Part shown: positions 37,111-47,168 of the stretch, piece after piece | How positions within the stretch are numbered: the stretch's first letter is position 1 | How the letters are laid out: every line of letters starts with the position of its first letter | Virus genome (UHGV): UHGV-1376407 | DNA length: 47,558 bases | Origin: a virus | Direction: 5' to 3' (one strand) | Notes under the pieces: generated by a model | Database searches by the model: none | The model's input: the letters and a program-made list of their open reading frames with translations, nothing else | Told to the model about the DNA's origin: nothing | Position numbers and translations under genes: made by a program

Positions 37111-38535
37111 TTATCTCCTGCTCCTCCTAATCCAACCAGAGCCGCGCTGTACGATGTAGTCATTTAACGCATAACGTACCGCATCCCAATAGTGGTTGTA
37201 TTTATCAACGATTTCAGTAAGCACAAGGCCTGTATTCTTGTCGACCTTGTGGCTGTACATCGCAGCCTCGTTTTTCATTTCCGTGCATCTGTCGTGAATG
37301 ATGATGTTGTCACAACCCCTTAGCCACGTTATGCCGTCCTCGACGCTGCCTGGCCACTTGTTGCAGGGATGAATGTCAAAGCCAGCGCGCTTGATGTGGC
37401 TGATGGTTTCCGGCCTTGAGGAGTCGGCATACCATCGAGCCTTGCGTGCCATCGGAAATGCCTGGTCCATTGCTGCCGGATGGTCGGTAATCTCAAGATG
37501 AACCTTGCCATACTCACGATTAATATAAATGTTGCGCCGGTCGCCGGATAGATTTTCCACCCAAACCTCAACCATTGCGGCAGGGTCGCCACTGAAACCG
37601 AAGTCCATTCCGTGATATGGGCCATGCCATTCAGGATTGACCTCAAACGATGCTGTGCGCCATTTACCACCAAACACCTGCTCATCGCTGCGTTTGTTGA
37701 ATTTACCTTCCCAAATCCAGAGATAGCGGTCGAAGTCGACTGCCTTCATTTTCTCCATGGATGCCGGGAGCGGGGTGTCATAAAACCACGGGTTGTCTCG
37801 GTAATTACACTCAATGATTAATGTGTCATCATCCTCATAGATGCCGTCGACCATCTTGTTGTAATAGGGCGCCACCCACTGAGTCCATGTGGCATCGGTT
37901 TCTTTATTGGGGTTAAACGTCACCCATATCTCAGACCCTTCCGCTCGGATGGTCGGCTCAAGGATATCCCACGATGCCTGGCTGACGTTTTCAGCTTCTT
38001 CCACCCATGCTTTCGATATCCCGGCAAAGCCCTTGACGCCTGTGATGTTGCGATAAAGGCCACGGAACCTGAATTTTGATTTCGTTCGCTTGTGGGTTAT
38101 CTTGCCGTCGATGCAGCGATATTCTGATGATTCGCCTTTGCGGTCGATTTCATCTACCAGCTCCTGATAGCTGGAGTCCTCGATAGACTGCTGAATTTCG
38201 CGGAAGCAGCCAATACGCTCAGGCCTGAATCGCGCGGACTCGGTGAGTATGGTTGCCACGGTGCGGGTCTTTGTTGATGCACGACCGCCAAAGACGACCT
38301 TATTACGCTTCGGATAAAGCAGCCTTTCGAGTTTTGCGGGGATTAAATGGTCGGCCTGCGTGGTTGCATGGGTGACATCCTCCACGCCGTTAGCGGTCAT
38401 TCTGAGGCGCTTGATGACGTTCTTCTGCATATCGCAGATGCCGAATATAGCCGACTCGGCAACATCGGTCAGCGCATCATCCACCTGCGACTCCAGCTTT
38501 TCGATTGCCAGTGCAGAGAGGCGTTTACGAGCCAT
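37111..38535 (-). CDS. terminase large subunit
   Basis: 474 aa. Walker A-like VVFGGRASTKTRT. Overlaps the small-subunit gene. Positioned upstream of the portal block. Confidence 0.75.
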   Translation of the reverse strand: MARKRLSALAIEKLESQVDDALTDVAESAIFGICDMQKNVIKRLRMTANGVEDVTHATTQADHLIPAKLERLLYPKRNKVVFGGRASTKTRTVATILTESARFRPERIGCFREIQQSIEDSSYQELVDEIDRKGESSEYRCIDGKITHKRTKSKFRFRGLYRNITGVKGFAGISKAWVEEAENVSQASWDILEPTIRAEGSEIWVTFNPNKETDATWTQWVAPYYNKMVDGIYEDDDTLIIECNYRDNPWFYDTPLPASMEKMKAVDFDRYLWIWEGKFNKRSDEQVFGGKWRTASFEVNPEWHGPYHGMDFGFSGDPAAMVEVWVENLSGDRRNIYINREYGKVHLEITDHPAAMDQAFPMARKARWYADSSRPETISHIKRAGFDIHPCNKWPGSVEDGITWLRGCDNIIIHDRCTEMKNEAAMYSHKVDKNTGLVLTEIVDKYNHYWDAVRYALNDYIVQRGSGWIRRSRR

Positions 38536-38974
38536 TCGCGCTCTCCATCACCTTCTCAAGCCGCTCCAGCCTCTCGGCAAGCTCAGTAAGCTCTTTGACG
38601 TCAAGGCCAACCTTAATCATTGATACAACCTGAGACGCAACATCAATGGGAAGCTCACCAAGCGAGACTGACTGAATGACATCTTCAATCTGCTGCACCG
38701 GTGTTGCACCCTTCTGATATTTGAACTCAACAGGAGGGGCCATTGTCTTCTGCATGGGGCTGATGCGAAGAAATATTTCTTTCAGCATTTGGACGCCCTG
38801 AGTTGGATTTTCCTCCACCATTCTGATTGACGTGCGAATGAATGCGTCAAGAAACTCCTCTTCACCCATCCCGCAGCGCTTTAGTGCTTCTATTAACCTG
38901 TTTCTATAGCTTAAACCTCTTCCTGCTGGCTGGTATTCAGCAGAAAACTTCATAATCGGATTTGGATTTGCCAT
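38525..38974 (-). CDS. putative terminase small subunit
   Basis: 149-aa gene directly upstream of and overlapping the large terminase gene. Confidence 0.45.
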   Translation of the reverse strand: MANPNPIMKFSAEYQPAGRGLSYRNRLIEALKRCGMGEEEFLDAFIRTSIRMVEENPTQGVQMLKEIFLRISPMQKTMAPPVEFKYQKGATPVQQIEDVIQSVSLGELPIDVASQVVSMIKVGLDVKELTELAERLERLEKVMESANGS

Positions 38975-41484: not shown

Positions 41485-41515
41485 TCTTCATCACCTCTTC
41501 GTTGTTGGTGTGGTA

Positions 41516-41544
41516 ACTATACGATGGCGCTCAATCTACGTCAA
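41516..41544 (-). promoter_or_regulatory. box promoter on - strand (TTGACG -35, 17 bp, TATAGT -10; TTGACGTAGATTGAGCGCCATCGTATAGT)
   Basis: Same architecture as the promoter at 18561; drives the leftward operon. Confidence 0.6.
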
Positions 41545-41586
41545 TATGATGGTGAAAATAAATATAACACTGTGAATTAATCCAGT

Positions 41587-41663
41587 GTTCCCGCTGTTCC
41601 CGGCAGTTCCCGCGCGAGTTCCCGCGATTTATTGTTATAAATCAACGAGTTCCCGAGTTCCCA
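41587..41663 (+). repeat. six direct GTTCCC(G/A) iterons (left arm of putative origin)
   Basis: GTTCCCG at 41587, 41596, 41606, 41618, 41649; GTTCCCA at 41657. Confidence 0.8.
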
Positions 41664-41764
41664 GTTTTTTCCTTAAAAATTAATTTTTCCAAAAATGATG
41701 AAATTAATTTTTTCTAGTAAAAACAACAGCATATATTAAAGGTATATATTACTTTTTTACTAGA
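41664..41764. other. AT-rich putative DNA unwinding element between iteron arms
   Basis: About 100 bp at roughly 85% AT with internal repeats AATTAATTTTT (x2) and TATATATTA. Confidence 0.5.
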
Positions 41765-41852
41765 GGAATTCCCTGGGAACTCGGGAACTCCTCTGCAATC
41801 CTTGGTGCGCGCGGCCTGAGAGTTCCCAGATGGGCGGGAACTCCTGGGAACT
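41765..41852 (-). repeat. inverted-orientation GGGAAC iterons (right arm), including palindromes GGAATTCCC and AGTTCCC-N8-GGGAACT
   Basis: GGGAAC at 41775, 41783, 41836, 41846. GTTCCCA at 41822 facing GGGAAC 41836. Confidence 0.8.
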
Positions 41853-41913
41853 GGTTAAAACTTGAACTATTGGCGCGCTGTATGATGCTAGGCGCTTCTG
41901 TTGATTAAAGAGT

Positions 41914-41942
41914 TTGCGCGAGTGCAGATTGTTCAGTACAAT
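41914..41942 (+). promoter_or_regulatory. sigma70 promoter for replication operon (TTGCGC -35, 17 bp, TACAAT -10)
   Basis: Exact 17-bp spacing. Followed by strong RBS AGGAGGAAG and the 41969 gene. Confidence 0.5.
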
Positions 41943-41968: not shown

Positions 41969-42250
41969 GTGATGCACGCAGAAGGCTCAAAGATGAAGTT
42001 CGTTTATGACCACCTTTCCGCTATGAAGAGCGGGGAGGTGATATCCGTACATTTCGAAAATGATTTATCAGATGCAGTAGTCAGGGGTTACAAAGAGGAA
42101 TGTGGCTTATCTGATATCCCGCCAGAGTATCGAATGAACAGAAACATGTTCCGCTCTTATGCTGCAAAGATCGCAATTGCGCATAACATGAACATCAAAA
42201 CAAAAAACGGGCCAATGGGTAAATTCCTGTACATCTGGAAGGTTTGCTGA
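41969..42250 (+). CDS. hypothetical protein (first gene of replication operon)
   Basis: Strong RBS AAGGAGGAAG. Confidence 0.45.
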   Translation: MMHAEGSKMKFVYDHLSAMKSGEVISVHFENDLSDAVVRGYKEECGLSDIPPEYRMNRNMFRSYAAKIAIAHNMNIKTKNGPMGKFLYIWKVC

Positions 42251-43899
42251 TGAATACATACGAAATTATCGCCATGAAGAAATCAGTTGGTAAATTTGAT
42301 TCATCAACAGACCCGCTGGATGAGGCTGACATTCCTGAATTCAGGGAAAAATACAAGATTCCTCCAGGTTCGCTTGGCGAGTTCATCCAGGAGATAGAGA
42401 AAAACTTCGAGCGCCGTGACGATGGGGAAAAATATAGACTTGTTGGAGCGCTTGGCCTTGCTCAGATAATGGCGGGCAGATTTATTATTGGCCCGACAGG
42501 TAGCAAGTGCTCAACTGGCATTTTCCTTGTGGCTCGATCTGGTGCTGGTAAGCAGGCTCCGGTAAGTTTTATAAAACAATATGCCGAAGCTCTGATGATA
42601 AGCGACCGCCTTTGCACCACGACTGCAACATCATTAAAGCAGATACAGACAAGCATGATTGAAGGTGATGGCTCTCTGCTTTACGTGGTAAACGATGATA
42701 AGCAGCACATTGACTCATGGAATGACCCTCGAAGCGCCTATCTTGGAGGAACTGCCCCGTGGTATCGCGGTTTATCTGATGAGGGTGGGTGGGTCCCGAC
42801 AAGGACAATAATCAGGGATATCGAGGAGAATATGGCTAAAGCCATGAACCCAAAAACGATAGTCAGCGTTGCGATGGCAGAGGGTTGGATTGTTCCGCGT
42901 ATTGGCGGAGCGCAGGATGGGATGATTGATTATAAAAGATTGTCTCAGATGGATCACAGCGTAGGTAGAAACCTGAAAAAAGTCATGGCGGAGCATGAAT
43001 TATGCACGCGAGATGGAGGGATTGAGAACGCGCGATTTATTCCGCTAATCACTGTAACGCCGGTTCAGGGTATTGATGCTGTAAGGTCATGGCAGAAAGA
43101 TGGCGGCATGGGAAGGACGTTGTTTATTCTTGGTCATGGAGATGACGAGGAAATGCCATTGCTCAAAAGAGAGCAGCCATCAGGTGAGGTCAACAGGAGA
43201 ATAGTGAATGAGTGGAAGCAAAGAATCCTTCGCTCAATAACCCGCGTTGAATTTGAAAGCGAAAAGGTAAATGACAGACGTTATGAGCTCACCTGCCATC
43301 TTGAAAAATGTCTTGGGAATGTGGATGGCGTAATTGGCGATGTTGTCCCGCGCGCCGGGCAGATGATTGTAGACCTTGCCTCGATATGCGCATTTGCAGA
43401 CCTTTCCAGCCGTAATGGGATGACGCCTGTTTTATGCGACAGGCATCTTGAATGGGCATATATGACAGTCATTAACCATCTGCGCGCACTTCGTGATTAT
43501 ATCGAAGGTGACGTTGCATTTAGCGGTCTTGAAGAGGACGAGTGGGAGAATATCATAGCCAAAATGAGAAAGGTGATGGCAGGGAAGAAGTTTATTAACA
43601 AGCCTTACACGTCCGTCCTGAAAAGCGGATTATGTCGCGGAAGAATTGAGACAATCATCAAAGCGGCGAATTCAAATCATCTACAGGTGACGCCTGACAG
43701 ATTCATTTCTGAGGTTCTGGTTTCCATTACAGAAAATCGGCACTCACCTATCGATCTTGAGGTATCTGCTATTAATGGTGGGTCAAAAATCGTCTTCAGG
43801 GATGAAGGGTCATGGTCTGGTCTGCGAATGAATGCCTCTGTAAGAAACATACTTTCGTCTGCTGTTAACAGGATGAAATTCATGAGAGGTCTGAAATGA
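42244..43899 (+). CDS. putative replication protein (551 aa, possible P-loop ARSGAGKQ)
   Basis: Large ORF next to the iteron origin, coupled to its neighbours. Confidence 0.4.
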   Translation: MLMNTYEIIAMKKSVGKFDSSTDPLDEADIPEFREKYKIPPGSLGEFIQEIEKNFERRDDGEKYRLVGALGLAQIMAGRFIIGPTGSKCSTGIFLVARSGAGKQAPVSFIKQYAEALMISDRLCTTTATSLKQIQTSMIEGDGSLLYVVNDDKQHIDSWNDPRSAYLGGTAPWYRGLSDEGGWVPTRTIIRDIEENMAKAMNPKTIVSVAMAEGWIVPRIGGAQDGMIDYKRLSQMDHSVGRNLKKVMAEHELCTRDGGIENARFIPLITVTPVQGIDAVRSWQKDGGMGRTLFILGHGDDEEMPLLKREQPSGEVNRRIVNEWKQRILRSITRVEFESEKVNDRRYELTCHLEKCLGNVDGVIGDVVPRAGQMIVDLASICAFADLSSRNGMTPVLCDRHLEWAYMTVINHLRALRDYIEGDVAFSGLEEDEWENIIAKMRKVMAGKKFINKPYTSVLKSGLCRGRIETIIKAANSNHLQVTPDRFISEVLVSITENRHSPIDLEVSAINGGSKIVFRDEGSWSGLRMNASVRNILSSAVNRMKFMRGLK

Positions 43900-44252
43900 A
43901 AGTTAACACTCGTGTTACTGCTGCCCTTTATTACGCCATGTCAGGCACTCATGATGGCATGTGGTTCGGATTGCAAGGTGCGGCAGACCAGTGTCTATTT
44001 GATGCGTCAGTGTTTCATTCGGAGGTGATGGATCTTACCCAGGAGTGCTTTAATGGTCATTATTTCCTTTGCTTCAAACGTGGGGTGACGTCTCATGAGA
44101 ATGACTGGAGAGCCATTGCCACTAATTTGATTTATCGCCATGACGGCGCTCACCAGGTACATGCGTGTGGCAAATCAAACACAAAAAACAGAGCGATAAG
44201 ACACTGTTGCAAAGCTATGGATGCAGCCATCAAAAAATACAATCTTGATTAA
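43896..44252 (+). CDS. hypothetical Cys/His-rich protein
   Basis: ATGA coupling; 118 aa. Confidence 0.45.
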   Translation: MKVNTRVTAALYYAMSGTHDGMWFGLQGAADQCLFDASVFHSEVMDLTQECFNGHYFLCFKRGVTSHENDWRAIATNLIYRHDGAHQVHACGKSNTKNRAIRHCCKAMDAAIKKYNLD

Positions 44253-44286
44253 CAAAAACCCTCCATCAGGAGGGTTTGTTTTTTAG
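44253..44286. terminator. bidirectional terminator (AAACCCTCC-ATCA-GGAGGGTTT + TTTTTT)
   Basis: Strong hairpin between convergent genes. The primase stop codon lies in the loop. Confidence 0.8.
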
Positions 44287-45159
44287 TGCTTCGAATAAAT
44301 CACCAGGTGTGTAAAGCCTTTTCCTTATAGCGCCGCTGTAACGAATATCCTGCCCGTCATCGGTAATCAGTATCGGCAGACCTGCATTCTCTGCGGCGCA
44401 TACCTCATCGAAATTATTATTAATGATGCAGCGCAGTTTTTCTCGCTGCTCACCGCTGACATTGCGTACAATTTCCCACATGTTTTCAGGAGACCAGCAA
44501 CACCAGACATGAGCACCGGTAAGCCGATGCGCTCTCCATGCGTCAAAGTAATCTGCAACCAGGTATGTCCACTCTGTCTTGTCGCCGATGGGTGTCACTG
44601 CGCCGCGTGTAAGCCTTCCGCGAGTGTACTCATGACTGAAACCCGCGCGAAATGACACGCTTTCATCGTCAGCAATGAATGCCACATTGCACGGCATCAT
44701 AGTTCCAGCCATGTAGAGCGGTATCGCCACCAGTTCACCAGTTTTGCCGGTTATGGTGTCATTTCCTGCTTTTTCCAAGATGGACGCCACTTCTGCCTCT
44801 GTTAGGTAGTCAGAAGCATGGTTGACCTTCGGGAGCTGCTTTCTAATCGCCTCAAGTTTTTCGCGTGGGTGCATGTTAAGAAACCCGGCCAATGCCTCCA
44901 TTGACTCCGGAAAAGTCATTCCTGACAGCTTCATTAACCAGGCGATGCCGCTGCCGTTTCCGCACTGGTTGCAGATGGCGCCGCCGTCACCTTTTGTTTC
45001 GAAGTTGTTATCCCACCTAAACCTGTCCTTACCCATGCAATGAGGGCATGGCTGATGCTTTCCATTAAAAACATTCCTGTCAATATTCACTATTGAGAGT
45101 AGAGCAGCCTCCCAGTTTCCTGCCATTAAAGGCTCTATATCCTTCCAGTCGTATCGCAT
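44266..45159 (-). CDS. DNA primase (zinc-ribbon plus Toprim-like)
   Basis: N-terminal zinc ribbon HQPCPHCMGKDRFRWDN...CNQCGNGSG (primase/P4-alpha type). Acidic ILITDDGQD Toprim-like motif. Confidence 0.65.
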   Translation of the reverse strand: MRYDWKDIEPLMAGNWEAALLSIVNIDRNVFNGKHQPCPHCMGKDRFRWDNNFETKGDGGAICNQCGNGSGIAWLMKLSGMTFPESMEALAGFLNMHPREKLEAIRKQLPKVNHASDYLTEAEVASILEKAGNDTITGKTGELVAIPLYMAGTMMPCNVAFIADDESVSFRAGFSHEYTRGRLTRGAVTPIGDKTEWTYLVADYFDAWRAHRLTGAHVWCCWSPENMWEIVRNVSGEQREKLRCIINNNFDEVCAAENAGLPILITDDGQDIRYSGAIRKRLYTPGDLFEALKNKPS

Positions 45160-45179: not shown

Positions 45180-45212
45180 CGTAGATTCAGTCTACTATTG
45201 TGACGTAGATTG
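45180..45212 (+). promoter_or_regulatory. box elements (GCCGTAGATTCAG ... TGACGTAGATTGA) in the primase/helicase divergent region
   Basis: Two CGTAGATT boxes 24 bp apart. Confidence 0.4.
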
Positions 45213-45233
45213 AGCAACACAAAGGTGGATGAA

Positions 45234-47168
45234 GTGCAAAAAATTGATGCAATGATTGCTGAGCTGGATATGGGTAAGCTGCGGGACAGCATCCATACCG
45301 GGGAAATTGAACCGCGACCATATCAGTGGCTGGTATATGAAAAGACAGCTGAGGTTATCCGCAAGTTTGGCAAGCAGCCAAAGCCAAGTTATGTTACCGC
45401 TTCAGTTGGCGCTGGTAAGACCATCATGATAGCCATGATTGCCCGTCGGTTTCAGGATATGGGGTGGGAGGGGCTTGTCATCGCGCGACAAGGCGAAATT
45501 ATTGAGCAGGATGCTGAGGAGCTTTGGAACCTGAGCGTAAAAAATTCTCTGTTTAGCGCATCTCTTGGGCGTAAAGCATATGCCTATCCGCTTATCGCGG
45601 GAACGGAGGGCACAATAATAAATGGTCTTTTTGATAAGACAGCCGATGATGGCACCGTGACGAAATCACTGCTATCAGACTTTTCACCACGCTACATACT
45701 GGTTGATGAATGCCATCAGGTTAACTGGCAGGACATAATATCAGAGCAGCCAGAGACGCAGTACGGTGTCATCATGAATGAACTTAACCGGCGCTGTAAA
45801 GCGAAGTACGGGCATGAGGTGATAGTCATAGGCTACACCGGCAGCCCATTTCGCGGCGTTGAGTCGATAAAGGGGGCTTACTGGAAGCATGAAATAGTCA
45901 ACATCAGCACAAAATACCTTGTCGATCTTGGCTTTCTGGTTCCGACAATTTTCGGCGGCCAGGATATCGAAGACTTGCAATACGACCTGCATGAGTTTGC
46001 CAGTAGTGACGTTGACGGCGTGCAGGACTTCACTGATAGCCAGCTAAAAGAGATGCAGGAAGAAATCCTCAAGCAGGGTACATTGACACAAAGAATTATG
46101 CTCAAAGTCATGGAGCTTACGCGTGACCGTCTCGGCGTACTCATTACCTGCGCCGGTAAAAAACATTGCAAGGAGGCTGCAAAATACTTACCAGAAGGCA
46201 GTTATTCCATTGTTACAGAGGATATGGGGCAGAAAGCCAGACGGAAAGCGCTGAAAGATGCGGCCACCGGGCGCAAAAAATACACGCTGCAAATCGGCTG
46301 CCTGACGACTGGCGTCAACATCCCATATTGGGATACTTCTGTCATCCTGAGAAAAATTATGTCCCTGACACTTCTGACGCAGTTGCTTGGCCGACCAATG
46401 CGCCTTTTAAAGCCTGACCAGATTTCCGCAGGTCTGGTGAAAGAAAACCATCTTTGCCTTGACTTCACCGGAACCATGTTCGAGCTTGGCGGTCTGTACG
46501 AAGACCCTATTCTTGAGGAAGCAGAAGCACAACGCGCAAAACGCAGCGGTGAGCAGGTGCCATGCCCAAAATGCCAGACGATGAACAGCCCGTATGCACG
46601 GCGCTGCATCGGTAAAGATGCAACATCGCCAGATGGTCGTTGCGAGGAGTTTTTCAGCTTTATCCGCTGCGGTTTCGACAAGCACGGAATCCGCATCTTT
46701 GATGATGGATGCGGGGCCAAAAATGACCCTACGGCGCGCTATTGCCGTTGCTGCGACCATGTGCTGCGCGACCCTAATGCGGCGCTTAATGAGCGCGCTT
46801 ATACTGATAATGAATGGACTGAAGTCAAGGATTTCAAGATTGAGCTAACGAAAGATGAGAAGGGCGTTGTTTATCGTTACTTCATCAAGAAAGAAAACGG
46901 CAAAGATGGCTGGGCCAGTGAGGTGTTCTATCCATTTGGCAGGCAGGAGAAGTACCTTAAAAATCAGTTTAAGATTAAAGGATTACTAAACCACGTATCA
47001 GACAGGAATCTGATTGATAACCTCATGAATTGCCACAACGCAAAAGCATTCATGGCGTTCACTGGCCTTATTCGCGCACCTAAACGCATCACGCATCGTT
47101 TTAACGATAAAGGCCGCGATATCATCCACCGCAAGGATTTCATAGGAGAGCAAATTGAAGCAGCTTGA
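45234..47168 (+). CDS. SF2 DNA helicase (DEAH/DECH-box) with C-terminal multi-CxxC zinc-ribbon region
   Basis: Walker A SVGAGKTIMIAMIA, motif II VDECHQV, later helicase motifs. Four CxxC pairs. Start set at GTG 45234 after AAGGTGG (track ORF starts at TTG 45210 inside the promoter box). Confidence 0.75.
   Translation: MQKIDAMIAELDMGKLRDSIHTGEIEPRPYQWLVYEKTAEVIRKFGKQPKPSYVTASVGAGKTIMIAMIARRFQDMGWEGLVIARQGEIIEQDAEELWNLSVKNSLFSASLGRKAYAYPLIAGTEGTIINGLFDKTADDGTVTKSLLSDFSPRYILVDECHQVNWQDIISEQPETQYGVIMNELNRRCKAKYGHEVIVIGYTGSPFRGVESIKGAYWKHEIVNISTKYLVDLGFLVPTIFGGQDIEDLQYDLHEFASSDVDGVQDFTDSQLKEMQEEILKQGTLTQRIMLKVMELTRDRLGVLITCAGKKHCKEAAKYLPEGSYSIVTEDMGQKARRKALKDAATGRKKYTLQIGCLTTGVNIPYWDTSVILRKIMSLTLLTQLLGRPMRLLKPDQISAGLVKENHLCLDFTGTMFELGGLYEDPILEEAEAQRAKRSGEQVPCPKCQTMNSPYARRCIGKDATSPDGRCEEFFSFIRCGFDKHGIRIFDDGCGAKNDPTARYCRCCDHVLRDPNAALNERAYTDNEWTEVKDFKIELTKDEKGVVYRYFIKKENGKDGWASEVFYPFGRQEKYLKNQFKIKGLLNHVSDRNLIDNLMNCHNAKAFMAFTGLIRAPKRITHRFNDKGRDIIHRKDFIGEQIEAA

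Follow-up and report, generated by a model that had tools for sequence, protein, structure and literature searches.

Positions 41586-41852 of the window (the whole 47,558-nucleotide stretch of DNA analysed) most probably form the replication origin of the phage, an origin of the "self-loading initiator-helicase" type in which two arrays of a short GTTCCC repeat face each other across an AT-rich core upstream of the gene for a predicted MCM-like helicase. The initial annotation had read the region as an iteron, unwinding element, iteron origin, and this reading fits every computational test applied. Its basis lies in selection on the repeat cores, co-variation of the repeats with the helicase module, and the same layout upstream of homologues of the helicase; the repeat cluster, its symmetry and the helicase fold were likewise computed.

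The 47.6-kb window is a Klebsiella siphovirus genome. Its nearest relatives, BUCT541 and KpnS_VR6602 (hereafter VR6602), share ~88-90% identity with it across the locus, and ~50 further Roufvirus/Skatevirus-like records match it only in parts. An assignment to the T1-like phages (Drexlerviridae) was considered and found to be wrong, the relatives being Roufvirus/Skatevirus-like. Several phage-therapy candidates are among these relatives, and the literature we found on these Klebsiella/E. coli siphoviruses described no replication origin.

The repeat element comprises the following features:

41586-41662, plus strand: left iteron arm, six direct (A/T)GTTCCC(G/A) copies, all reading towards the AT core
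41587, 41596, 41606, 41618, 41649 and 41657, plus strand: GTTCCC cores of the left arm, five followed by G and the last by A
41663-41765, no strand: AT-rich core, a putative DNA-unwinding element, 103 bp, 81.6% AT
41766-41852, minus strand: right iteron arm, four inverted copies, one direct copy and the GGAATTCCC palindrome
41766-41774, right arm: the GGAATTCCC palindrome
41775, 41783, 41836 and 41846, minus-strand copies: GGGAAC of the right arm
41822, plus strand: the direct GTTCCC of the right arm, part of the dyad AGTTCCC-N8-GGGAACT at 41821-41842
41647-41673 and 41764-41790: large imperfect palindrome with 27-nt arms, 85% complementary, bracketing the AT core

All of the repeat coordinates listed in the initial annotation were correct on re-checking, and some details of its description changed. 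The right arm, said to hold five inverted copies, holds four and one direct copy; the core, given as ~100 bp and ~85% AT, has the expected size, while 85% AT is reached only in 20-bp windows within it. Short palindromes (AAAAATTAATTT/AAATTAATTTTT and TCTAGTAAAAA/TTTTTACTAGA) lie inside the core, and the longer consensus of the repeat is (G)AGTTCCC(G). The palindrome with 27-nt arms gives the element a two-fold symmetry, which accounts for the strong single-strand fold of 41580-41860 (z = -9.25 relative to shuffled sequences).

The clustering of the repeat far exceeds chance. GTTCCC occurs 19 times in the window, with 11 copies inside 265 bp (41587-41851), and GTTCCC/GGGAAC is the most clustered of all 6-mers of the window. 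A similar density of GTTCCC elsewhere in the genome had been named beforehand as an argument against an origin; at the density seen outside the cluster, 0.05 copies would be expected in a span of this size (Poisson P ~7e-23), and in none of 500 first-order Markov simulations of the window did a 281-bp span contain over 4 copies. Four further copies lie within 1.2 kb far from the element (4391-5563; at 4391, 4474, 5093 and 5558), at a density far below that of the origin cluster, and are probably there by chance.

Variation among close relatives separates the repeats from the DNA between them. In an alignment of the window, BUCT541 and VR6602 over 41580-41860, only 1 of 66 iteron-core positions is variable, as compared to 41 of the 215 other positions (Fisher P = 1.2e-4). 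Substitutions among the three genomes fall in the spacers, the right-arm cores being invariant and those of the left arm nearly so, a pattern indicating that the iteron cores are under purifying selection. A search of the region for a DnaA box (with up to one mismatch), the IHF consensus or a cluster of GATC sites found none of them, and Rfam returned no credible RNA family, both matches scoring far below their gathering scores. Cumulative GC skew reaches its minimum at 41-42 kb; this is compatible with an origin and yet uninformative, because the direction of transcription switches at the same point.

The element lies in an intergenic region between divergent transcription units, surrounded by the following features:

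41544-41516, minus strand: leftward sigma-70-like promoter TTGACG-17-TATAGT, 10 of 12 matches
41914-41942, plus strand: probable rightward promoter TTGCGC-17-TACAAT of the replication operon, read from the sequence
41972-42250, plus strand: gene of the 92-aa protein, with a TGATG overlap with the helicase gene at 42248-42252
42250-43899, plus strand: gene of the 549-aa predicted MCM-like (SF6, DUF3987-related) AAA+ helicase, proposed initiator and candidate iteron binder
43896-44252, plus strand: 118-aa ORF, third gene of the rightward operon, varying between modules
44266-45159, minus strand: DnaG-type primase, 297 aa, with a zinc ribbon
45210-47168, plus strand: SF2 (ResIII/DEAD-type) helicase of the replication cluster, 652 aa

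The position between a leftward and a rightward promoter, claimed by the initial annotation, agrees with these two elements. The leftward promoter serves a cluster of small genes running towards the terminase genes and has the origin upstream of it. The rightward promoter fell below the threshold of the promoter scanner because its -35 hexamer matches the consensus at only 3 of 6 positions; TTGCGCGAGTGCAGATTGTTCAGTACAAT in this promoter region is identical in the window, BUCT541 and VR6602. Two protein lengths were revised: the protein reported as 551 aa, a figure obtained from an upstream TTG, is 549 aa long and starts at the ATG at 42250, and the "93-aa" protein is 92 aa long, with its ATG at 41972.

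Pfam gave no match for the 92-aa, 549-aa or 118-aa proteins, and the neighbouring genes contain no Rep_3/RepA-type initiator Pfam family and no O/P homologue. The 118-aa protein matches no family; its counterparts in relatives measure 57-138 aa, and some of them are annotated as "RNA-binding protein". No DNA polymerase was noticed in the examined part of the window. HNH homing-endonuclease genes occur in some related records (L002 9016-9582, L011 6489-7493, L013 5844-6416 and L015 254-1009), inserted either in the gap between the primase and SF2 helicase genes or in the leftward small-gene cluster, and are absent from the corresponding places in the window.

The 549-aa protein is, according to its predicted structure, a P-loop AAA+ helicase of the MCM clade with Walker A and Walker B motifs. 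Homologues are rare: 12 protein clusters were found in a set of 5.8 billion proteins, and the gene occurs in 11 of 50,697 phage records, all of which annotate its product as a "hypothetical protein". BASEL phages Bas77, Bas80 and Bas81 are among the carriers. In the alignment, the Walker A motif SGxGK (S99, G100, G102, K103) is invariant, as is D151 of the Walker B-like motif LLYVVDD. The predicted fold matches MCM helicases best and SaPI Rep and SCCmec Cch more weakly; a sequence search of the protein and its profile against PDB chains returned nothing. Secondary-structure prediction for residues 456-518 gives three helices followed by two strands, compatible with a winged helix, and the model probably contains a C-terminal winged-helix domain at approximately residues 446-525.

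The relationship to the DUF3987 family (PF13148) is distant. The 549-aa protein does not reach the PF13148 gathering score, and in an alignment of it with 11 homologues, only two of the 12 sequences match DUF3987, with a best E of 0.0076. An exhaustive profile search extends to proteins of 750-850 aa (E 1e-12 to 1e-4); in those with a detected N-terminal primase region, the matching part comes after it. When ten of these proteins were compared with Pfam, DUF3987 was found in seven (above the gathering score in four), Prim-Pol exceeded its gathering score in six, and a seventh carried another primase-polymerase domain, NrS-1 HBD. In PHROGs, the 549-aa protein aligns to the C-terminal part of phrog_3022 (E 1.2e-15). 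Judging by these profile comparisons, it is homologous to DUF3987-containing proteins. Its features match what has been published on DUF3987 proteins, which are predicted to be replicative phage helicases of SF6, distantly related to MCM and ending in a wHTH, and which often lie beside a primase or are fused with one (PMC4889955).

We then compared the intergenic regions upstream of the gene in ten loci of diverged homologues of the 549-aa protein (32-59% identity). All ten contain clustered repeats in both orientations, and the repeats found are as follows:

L010 and L013: AGTTACCGG, the origin/helicase type of L010 being also labelled GTTACCGG
L015: GTTATCGG
L016: ACTTCCC / TTCCCNG
L017, E. 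coli phage Bas77: TTTACCGG
L018: AGTTATCCG
L012, in a different phage backbone, beside its terminase genes: ACTTCC
KLB16, 32% identity: TTTACYA / TRGTAAA

In the five regions whose sequence was read directly (L010, L012, L013, Bas77 and KLB16), the repeats read towards an AT-rich core of ~60-110 bp with the opposed set beyond it. The arrangement of repeats, AT-rich core and opposed repeats is clear in nine of the ten homologues and less regular in L016. The variants look like versions of a common pattern, A-G/C-T-T-N-C-C-(G)-G, as would be expected of a conserved DNA-binding module with drifting specificity. Across this set, the comparison indicates that the layout stays with the protein family and that the sequence of the repeats varies.

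The initial annotation had proposed the "93-aa" or the "551-aa" protein as the binder of the iterons. We consider the 549-aa protein the likely binder, because it shares its predicted winged-helix arrangement with the Rep proteins of SaPIs and PICIs; these use a C-terminal winged helix to bind their iterons, and they self-load (PMC9371898, PMC6092414, PMC7581432). The 92-aa candidate is less well placed: no DNA-binding fold can be recognised in its model, and it does not diverge in step with the repeats, the identity of 92-aa-type proteins being 51% in pairs with the same repeat and 48% in pairs with different repeats. A small ORF of 88-111 aa abuts the helicase gene in nine of the homologous loci, that is, in all but KLB16, so gene linkage cannot separate the two candidates. 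In KLB16 (vB_KM5a1-KLB16; L020 1393-3081), whose 562-aa protein is the homologue furthest from that of the window (32% identity), the annotation shows no separate small ORF upstream.

Conservation within the helicase offers some information on this point. In two pairs with TTAYCGG-type repeats, the winged-helix region is more conserved than the rest of the protein: 71% identity versus 56-59% elsewhere for L010/L013, and 62% versus 46-52% for L010/L017. This weakly favours the helicase as the binder. The window and L016 provide a counter-example, their winged-helix regions being only 25% identical despite similar TTCCC cores; this domain-level co-variation comes from few sequences and is not uniform. 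On balance, we lean towards the C-terminal region of the helicase as the part that reads the iterons, for which the iteron duplex would be AGTTCCCG. By its gene arrangement, the 92-aa protein is a conserved partner of the helicase, translationally coupled to it in the window (TGATG), and it may be an assembly or regulatory cofactor.

An alternative would be that the repeats serve a phage transcription factor at divergent early promoters, as its operators or activator sites, and have no origin function; this factor could be the 92-aa protein, or the helicase in the role of an autoregulator. The cluster does lie between the leftward promoter and the conserved rightward promoter-like element, upstream of both; iteron-binding initiators often autoregulate, and the 92-aa protein is co-encoded. 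The repeat arms, however, overlap neither promoter: they stop 43 bp and 62 bp short of the -35 hexamers, on the upstream side. A 60-110-bp AT core with opposed arrays recurs beside MCM-like helicase genes in unrelated contexts, and an origin needs such an arrangement whereas an operator does not. Together with the model of the 92-aa protein described above, this makes a purely regulatory function unlikely, although autoregulation on top of origin function is plausible.

Comparison with the more distant relatives revealed that the repeats belong to an exchangeable unit. Of the intergenic region, these phages share with the window only 41485-41563, which contains the leftward promoter and the leader. 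In ~45 related phage records, the leader is kept and complete divergence follows. The homology breakpoint is sharp, falling at 41563-41570 exactly where the repeats start (at ~4079-4086 in L003-L009), and it looks like a fixed recombination boundary for swaps of origin/initiator modules. Three modules were distinguished at this locus:

Module A (the window, BUCT541, VR6602): GTTCCC repeats and the 92-aa/549-aa pair
Module B (BUCT610, pYD38-A, VLCpiS13e, MK54): a small ORF and a 517-aa bona fide DUF3987 protein (Pfam E 2e-35)
Module C, inverted (VLCpiS13c, 6991): a 772-aa Prim-Pol + PriCT_2 + DUF3987 fusion and a Cro/YdaS-like HTH protein

In module B, AT-rich DNA is surrounded by TGGGG(A/C/T)A and GGGTTAA repeats, which occur in both orientations. 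Module C carries CTAAAGTCT, also in both orientations and at the same intergenic position, which in this module is on the 3' side of the Prim-Pol-helicase gene, one small ORF away. Two G-runs (7-9 G followed by TATTTTTTGTGA) stand in the middle of the CTAAAGTCT region (L004 4295-4350; L006 ~3335-3385) and are unusual for these AT-rich intergenic regions. When the profile of the 549-aa helicase was compared by hhalign with the proteins of the other modules, the module-B helicase gave no match (probability 0.2%), and the module-C fusion gave a weak match around Walker A (E 2.8e-4, probability 41%). In a comparison with three module-B phages, the DnaG-type primase remained 87-93% identical, so that what is exchanged is the repeats and the initiator rather than the replication cluster as a whole. 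The repeats change with the initiator-helicase module; they follow neither the conserved flanking genes nor the allele of the putative small terminase.

The last point bears on a second alternative, in which the element is a headful packaging (pac) site and the repeats are small-terminase binding sites flanking a cleavage region, as in P1 pac. The gene concerned is:

38525-38974, minus strand: putative small terminase, 149 aa, phrog_9747, upstream of the large terminase gene

The terminase genes lie 2.6-4.5 kb to the left of the element, and relatives package by the headful mode, one of them having terminal redundancy with partial circular permutation according to PhageTerm (PMC9901506). Moreover, the GenBank records of ZCKP8, vB_Kpn_ZC2 (ZC2), vB_Kpn_ZCKp20p (ZCKp20p), vB_KpnP_XY3 (XY3) and KpV2811, which come from different laboratories, have one of their ends within the corresponding intergenic region, at a distance of 190-400 bp from the conserved leader; these ends may reflect a numbering convention or an assembly break at AT-rich or palindromic DNA. 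The alleles of the putative small terminase speak against a pac site. At least three of them, at 42-47% identity, are shuffled among close relatives independently of the replication module. The protein of VR6602, which has GTTCCC repeats, is identical to that of pYD38-A, which has module B repeats, while the window allele shares 92% identity with that of KpV2811 but just 42-47% with the alleles of BUCT541 and VR6602. It is the helicase module that the repeats follow. PhageTerm analysis of another relative, KlebP_265, indicated a permuted genome with headful packaging and no defined termini (PMC11769527). We rejected the pac site because the type of repeat and the allele of the putative small terminase are combined independently of one another, and regard this explanation as very improbable.

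Least probable of all is a recombination scar or structural palindrome at the module boundary, such as a cruciform hotspot with no sequence-specific function: the abrupt end of homology with most relatives at ~41563-41570 and the strongly palindromic character of the region would suit it, but it leaves unexplained both the 11 copies of one 6-8-mer with cores invariant across three genomes and the recurrence of the architecture, with different repeats, beside each helicase variant.

For the replication origin that we favour, a course of events can be drawn by analogy with SaPI/PICI Rep (PMC9371898, PMC6092414) and SCCmec Cch2 (PMC7581432), from which we infer the binding domain, the loading of a double hexamer, the melting of the AT core and the role of transcription. 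The first step would be recognition of (G)AGTTCCC(G) by the 549-aa MCM-like AAA+ protein, whose gene lies ~400 bp downstream; its C-terminal winged-helix region would probably make the contact. Since the iteron arms point at each other across the 103-bp AT core, oligomers, probably two hexamers, would assemble on both sides of it in mirror orientation. The two oligomers would then melt the core, self-load and leave in opposite directions as 3'-5' helicases, after which the phage DnaG-type primase and the host polymerase would take over. The divergent promoters transcribe away from the origin, and the negative supercoiling left behind may help it to open.

If this is true, the locus supplies a defined origin/initiator pair: the site measures 270 bp, the recognition sequence 8 bp, and variants of different specificity occur naturally. 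Origin and initiator would then be exchanged together, as a single cassette, at a fixed recombination boundary (~41563-41570). The finding also flags a small conserved partner protein of an MCM-like helicase.

Among known systems, iteron plasmids (RepE, pi, TrfA) and lambda O/ori resemble the window in placing initiator sites beside an AT-rich unwinding element and in the co-evolution of their specificity. Their initiators, however, are not helicases and recruit host DnaB, often via DnaA boxes, or lambda P. Their iterons are direct repeats of 17-22 bp, and in lambda the ori is contained in the O gene; the window, unlike these systems, has no DnaA box, Rep_3 protein or O/P homologue. SV40 large T and papillomavirus E1 follow the same logic, with inverted short repeats and an AT-rich element directing the assembly of two initiator-helicase hexamers that melt the origin (PMC7581432), but these are SF3 proteins of eukaryotic viruses with an N-terminal origin-binding domain and no sequence homology to the window protein. 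The SCCmec helicases Cch, which is MCM-like, and Cch2 also have putative origins; that of Cch2 has only three direct iterons, located downstream of the gene, a symmetric two-arm layout is not described for it, and the element and host differ. Within the DUF3987 family, bona fide members form the alternative modules at the same locus and the window protein represents a small divergent branch; in the literature found, DUF3987 phage helicases were not linked to defined origins.

The closest system is that of the SaPI/PICI origins (SaPIbov1, SaPI1, SaPI5, EcCICFT073) with their Rep/Pri-Rep self-loading helicases. There, two sets of 5-8 bp iterons in opposite orientation, 6-12 copies in all, flank an AT-rich centre, the cognate Rep is an SF3 or SF6 (MCM-like) helicase, and the origin sequence is Rep-specific (PMC9371898, PMC6092414). 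The window likewise has six left and five right copies around its 103-bp, 81.6% AT core. SaPI/PICI origins are recognised by at least two opposed iterons per side (PMC9371898); here all six left copies are on the plus strand and four of the five right copies on the minus strand. The proposed initiator is again a hexameric-type helicase with a predicted C-terminal winged helix, and the repeats co-vary with it, with three alternative modules at one locus. The differences are equally clear. SaPI/PICI origins lie immediately 3' of rep, whereas that of the window is on the 5' side, 398 bp upstream of the helicase start, with the gene for the coupled 92-aa partner, itself a distinguishing feature, in between. 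The window element belongs to a virulent phage and not to an island, its primase is a separate DnaG-type enzyme, and the 549-aa protein has no detectable sequence similarity to any Rep.

The symmetric origin of iterons, AT core and iterons has been described as unique to phage-inducible chromosomal islands (PMC6092414). Our comparison suggests that a group of lytic enterobacterial phages also uses this layout, which, if true, extends the SaPI/PICI origin type to virulent phages. A wider version, which we put forward only tentatively, is that the symmetric origin is native to the whole group of virulent enterobacterial siphoviruses (Roufvirus/Skatevirus), with at least three DUF3987/MCM-like cassettes, each with its own iterons, swapped at one locus. 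If so, the branch of helicases described here would add a previously unrecognised 92-aa subunit in obligatory coupling, for example a loading or licensing cofactor, the system would be a minimal bacterial model for the head-to-head loading of MCM-like double hexamers, and the pri-rep-ori modules of PICIs and the replication modules of lytic phages would form one exchangeable pool.
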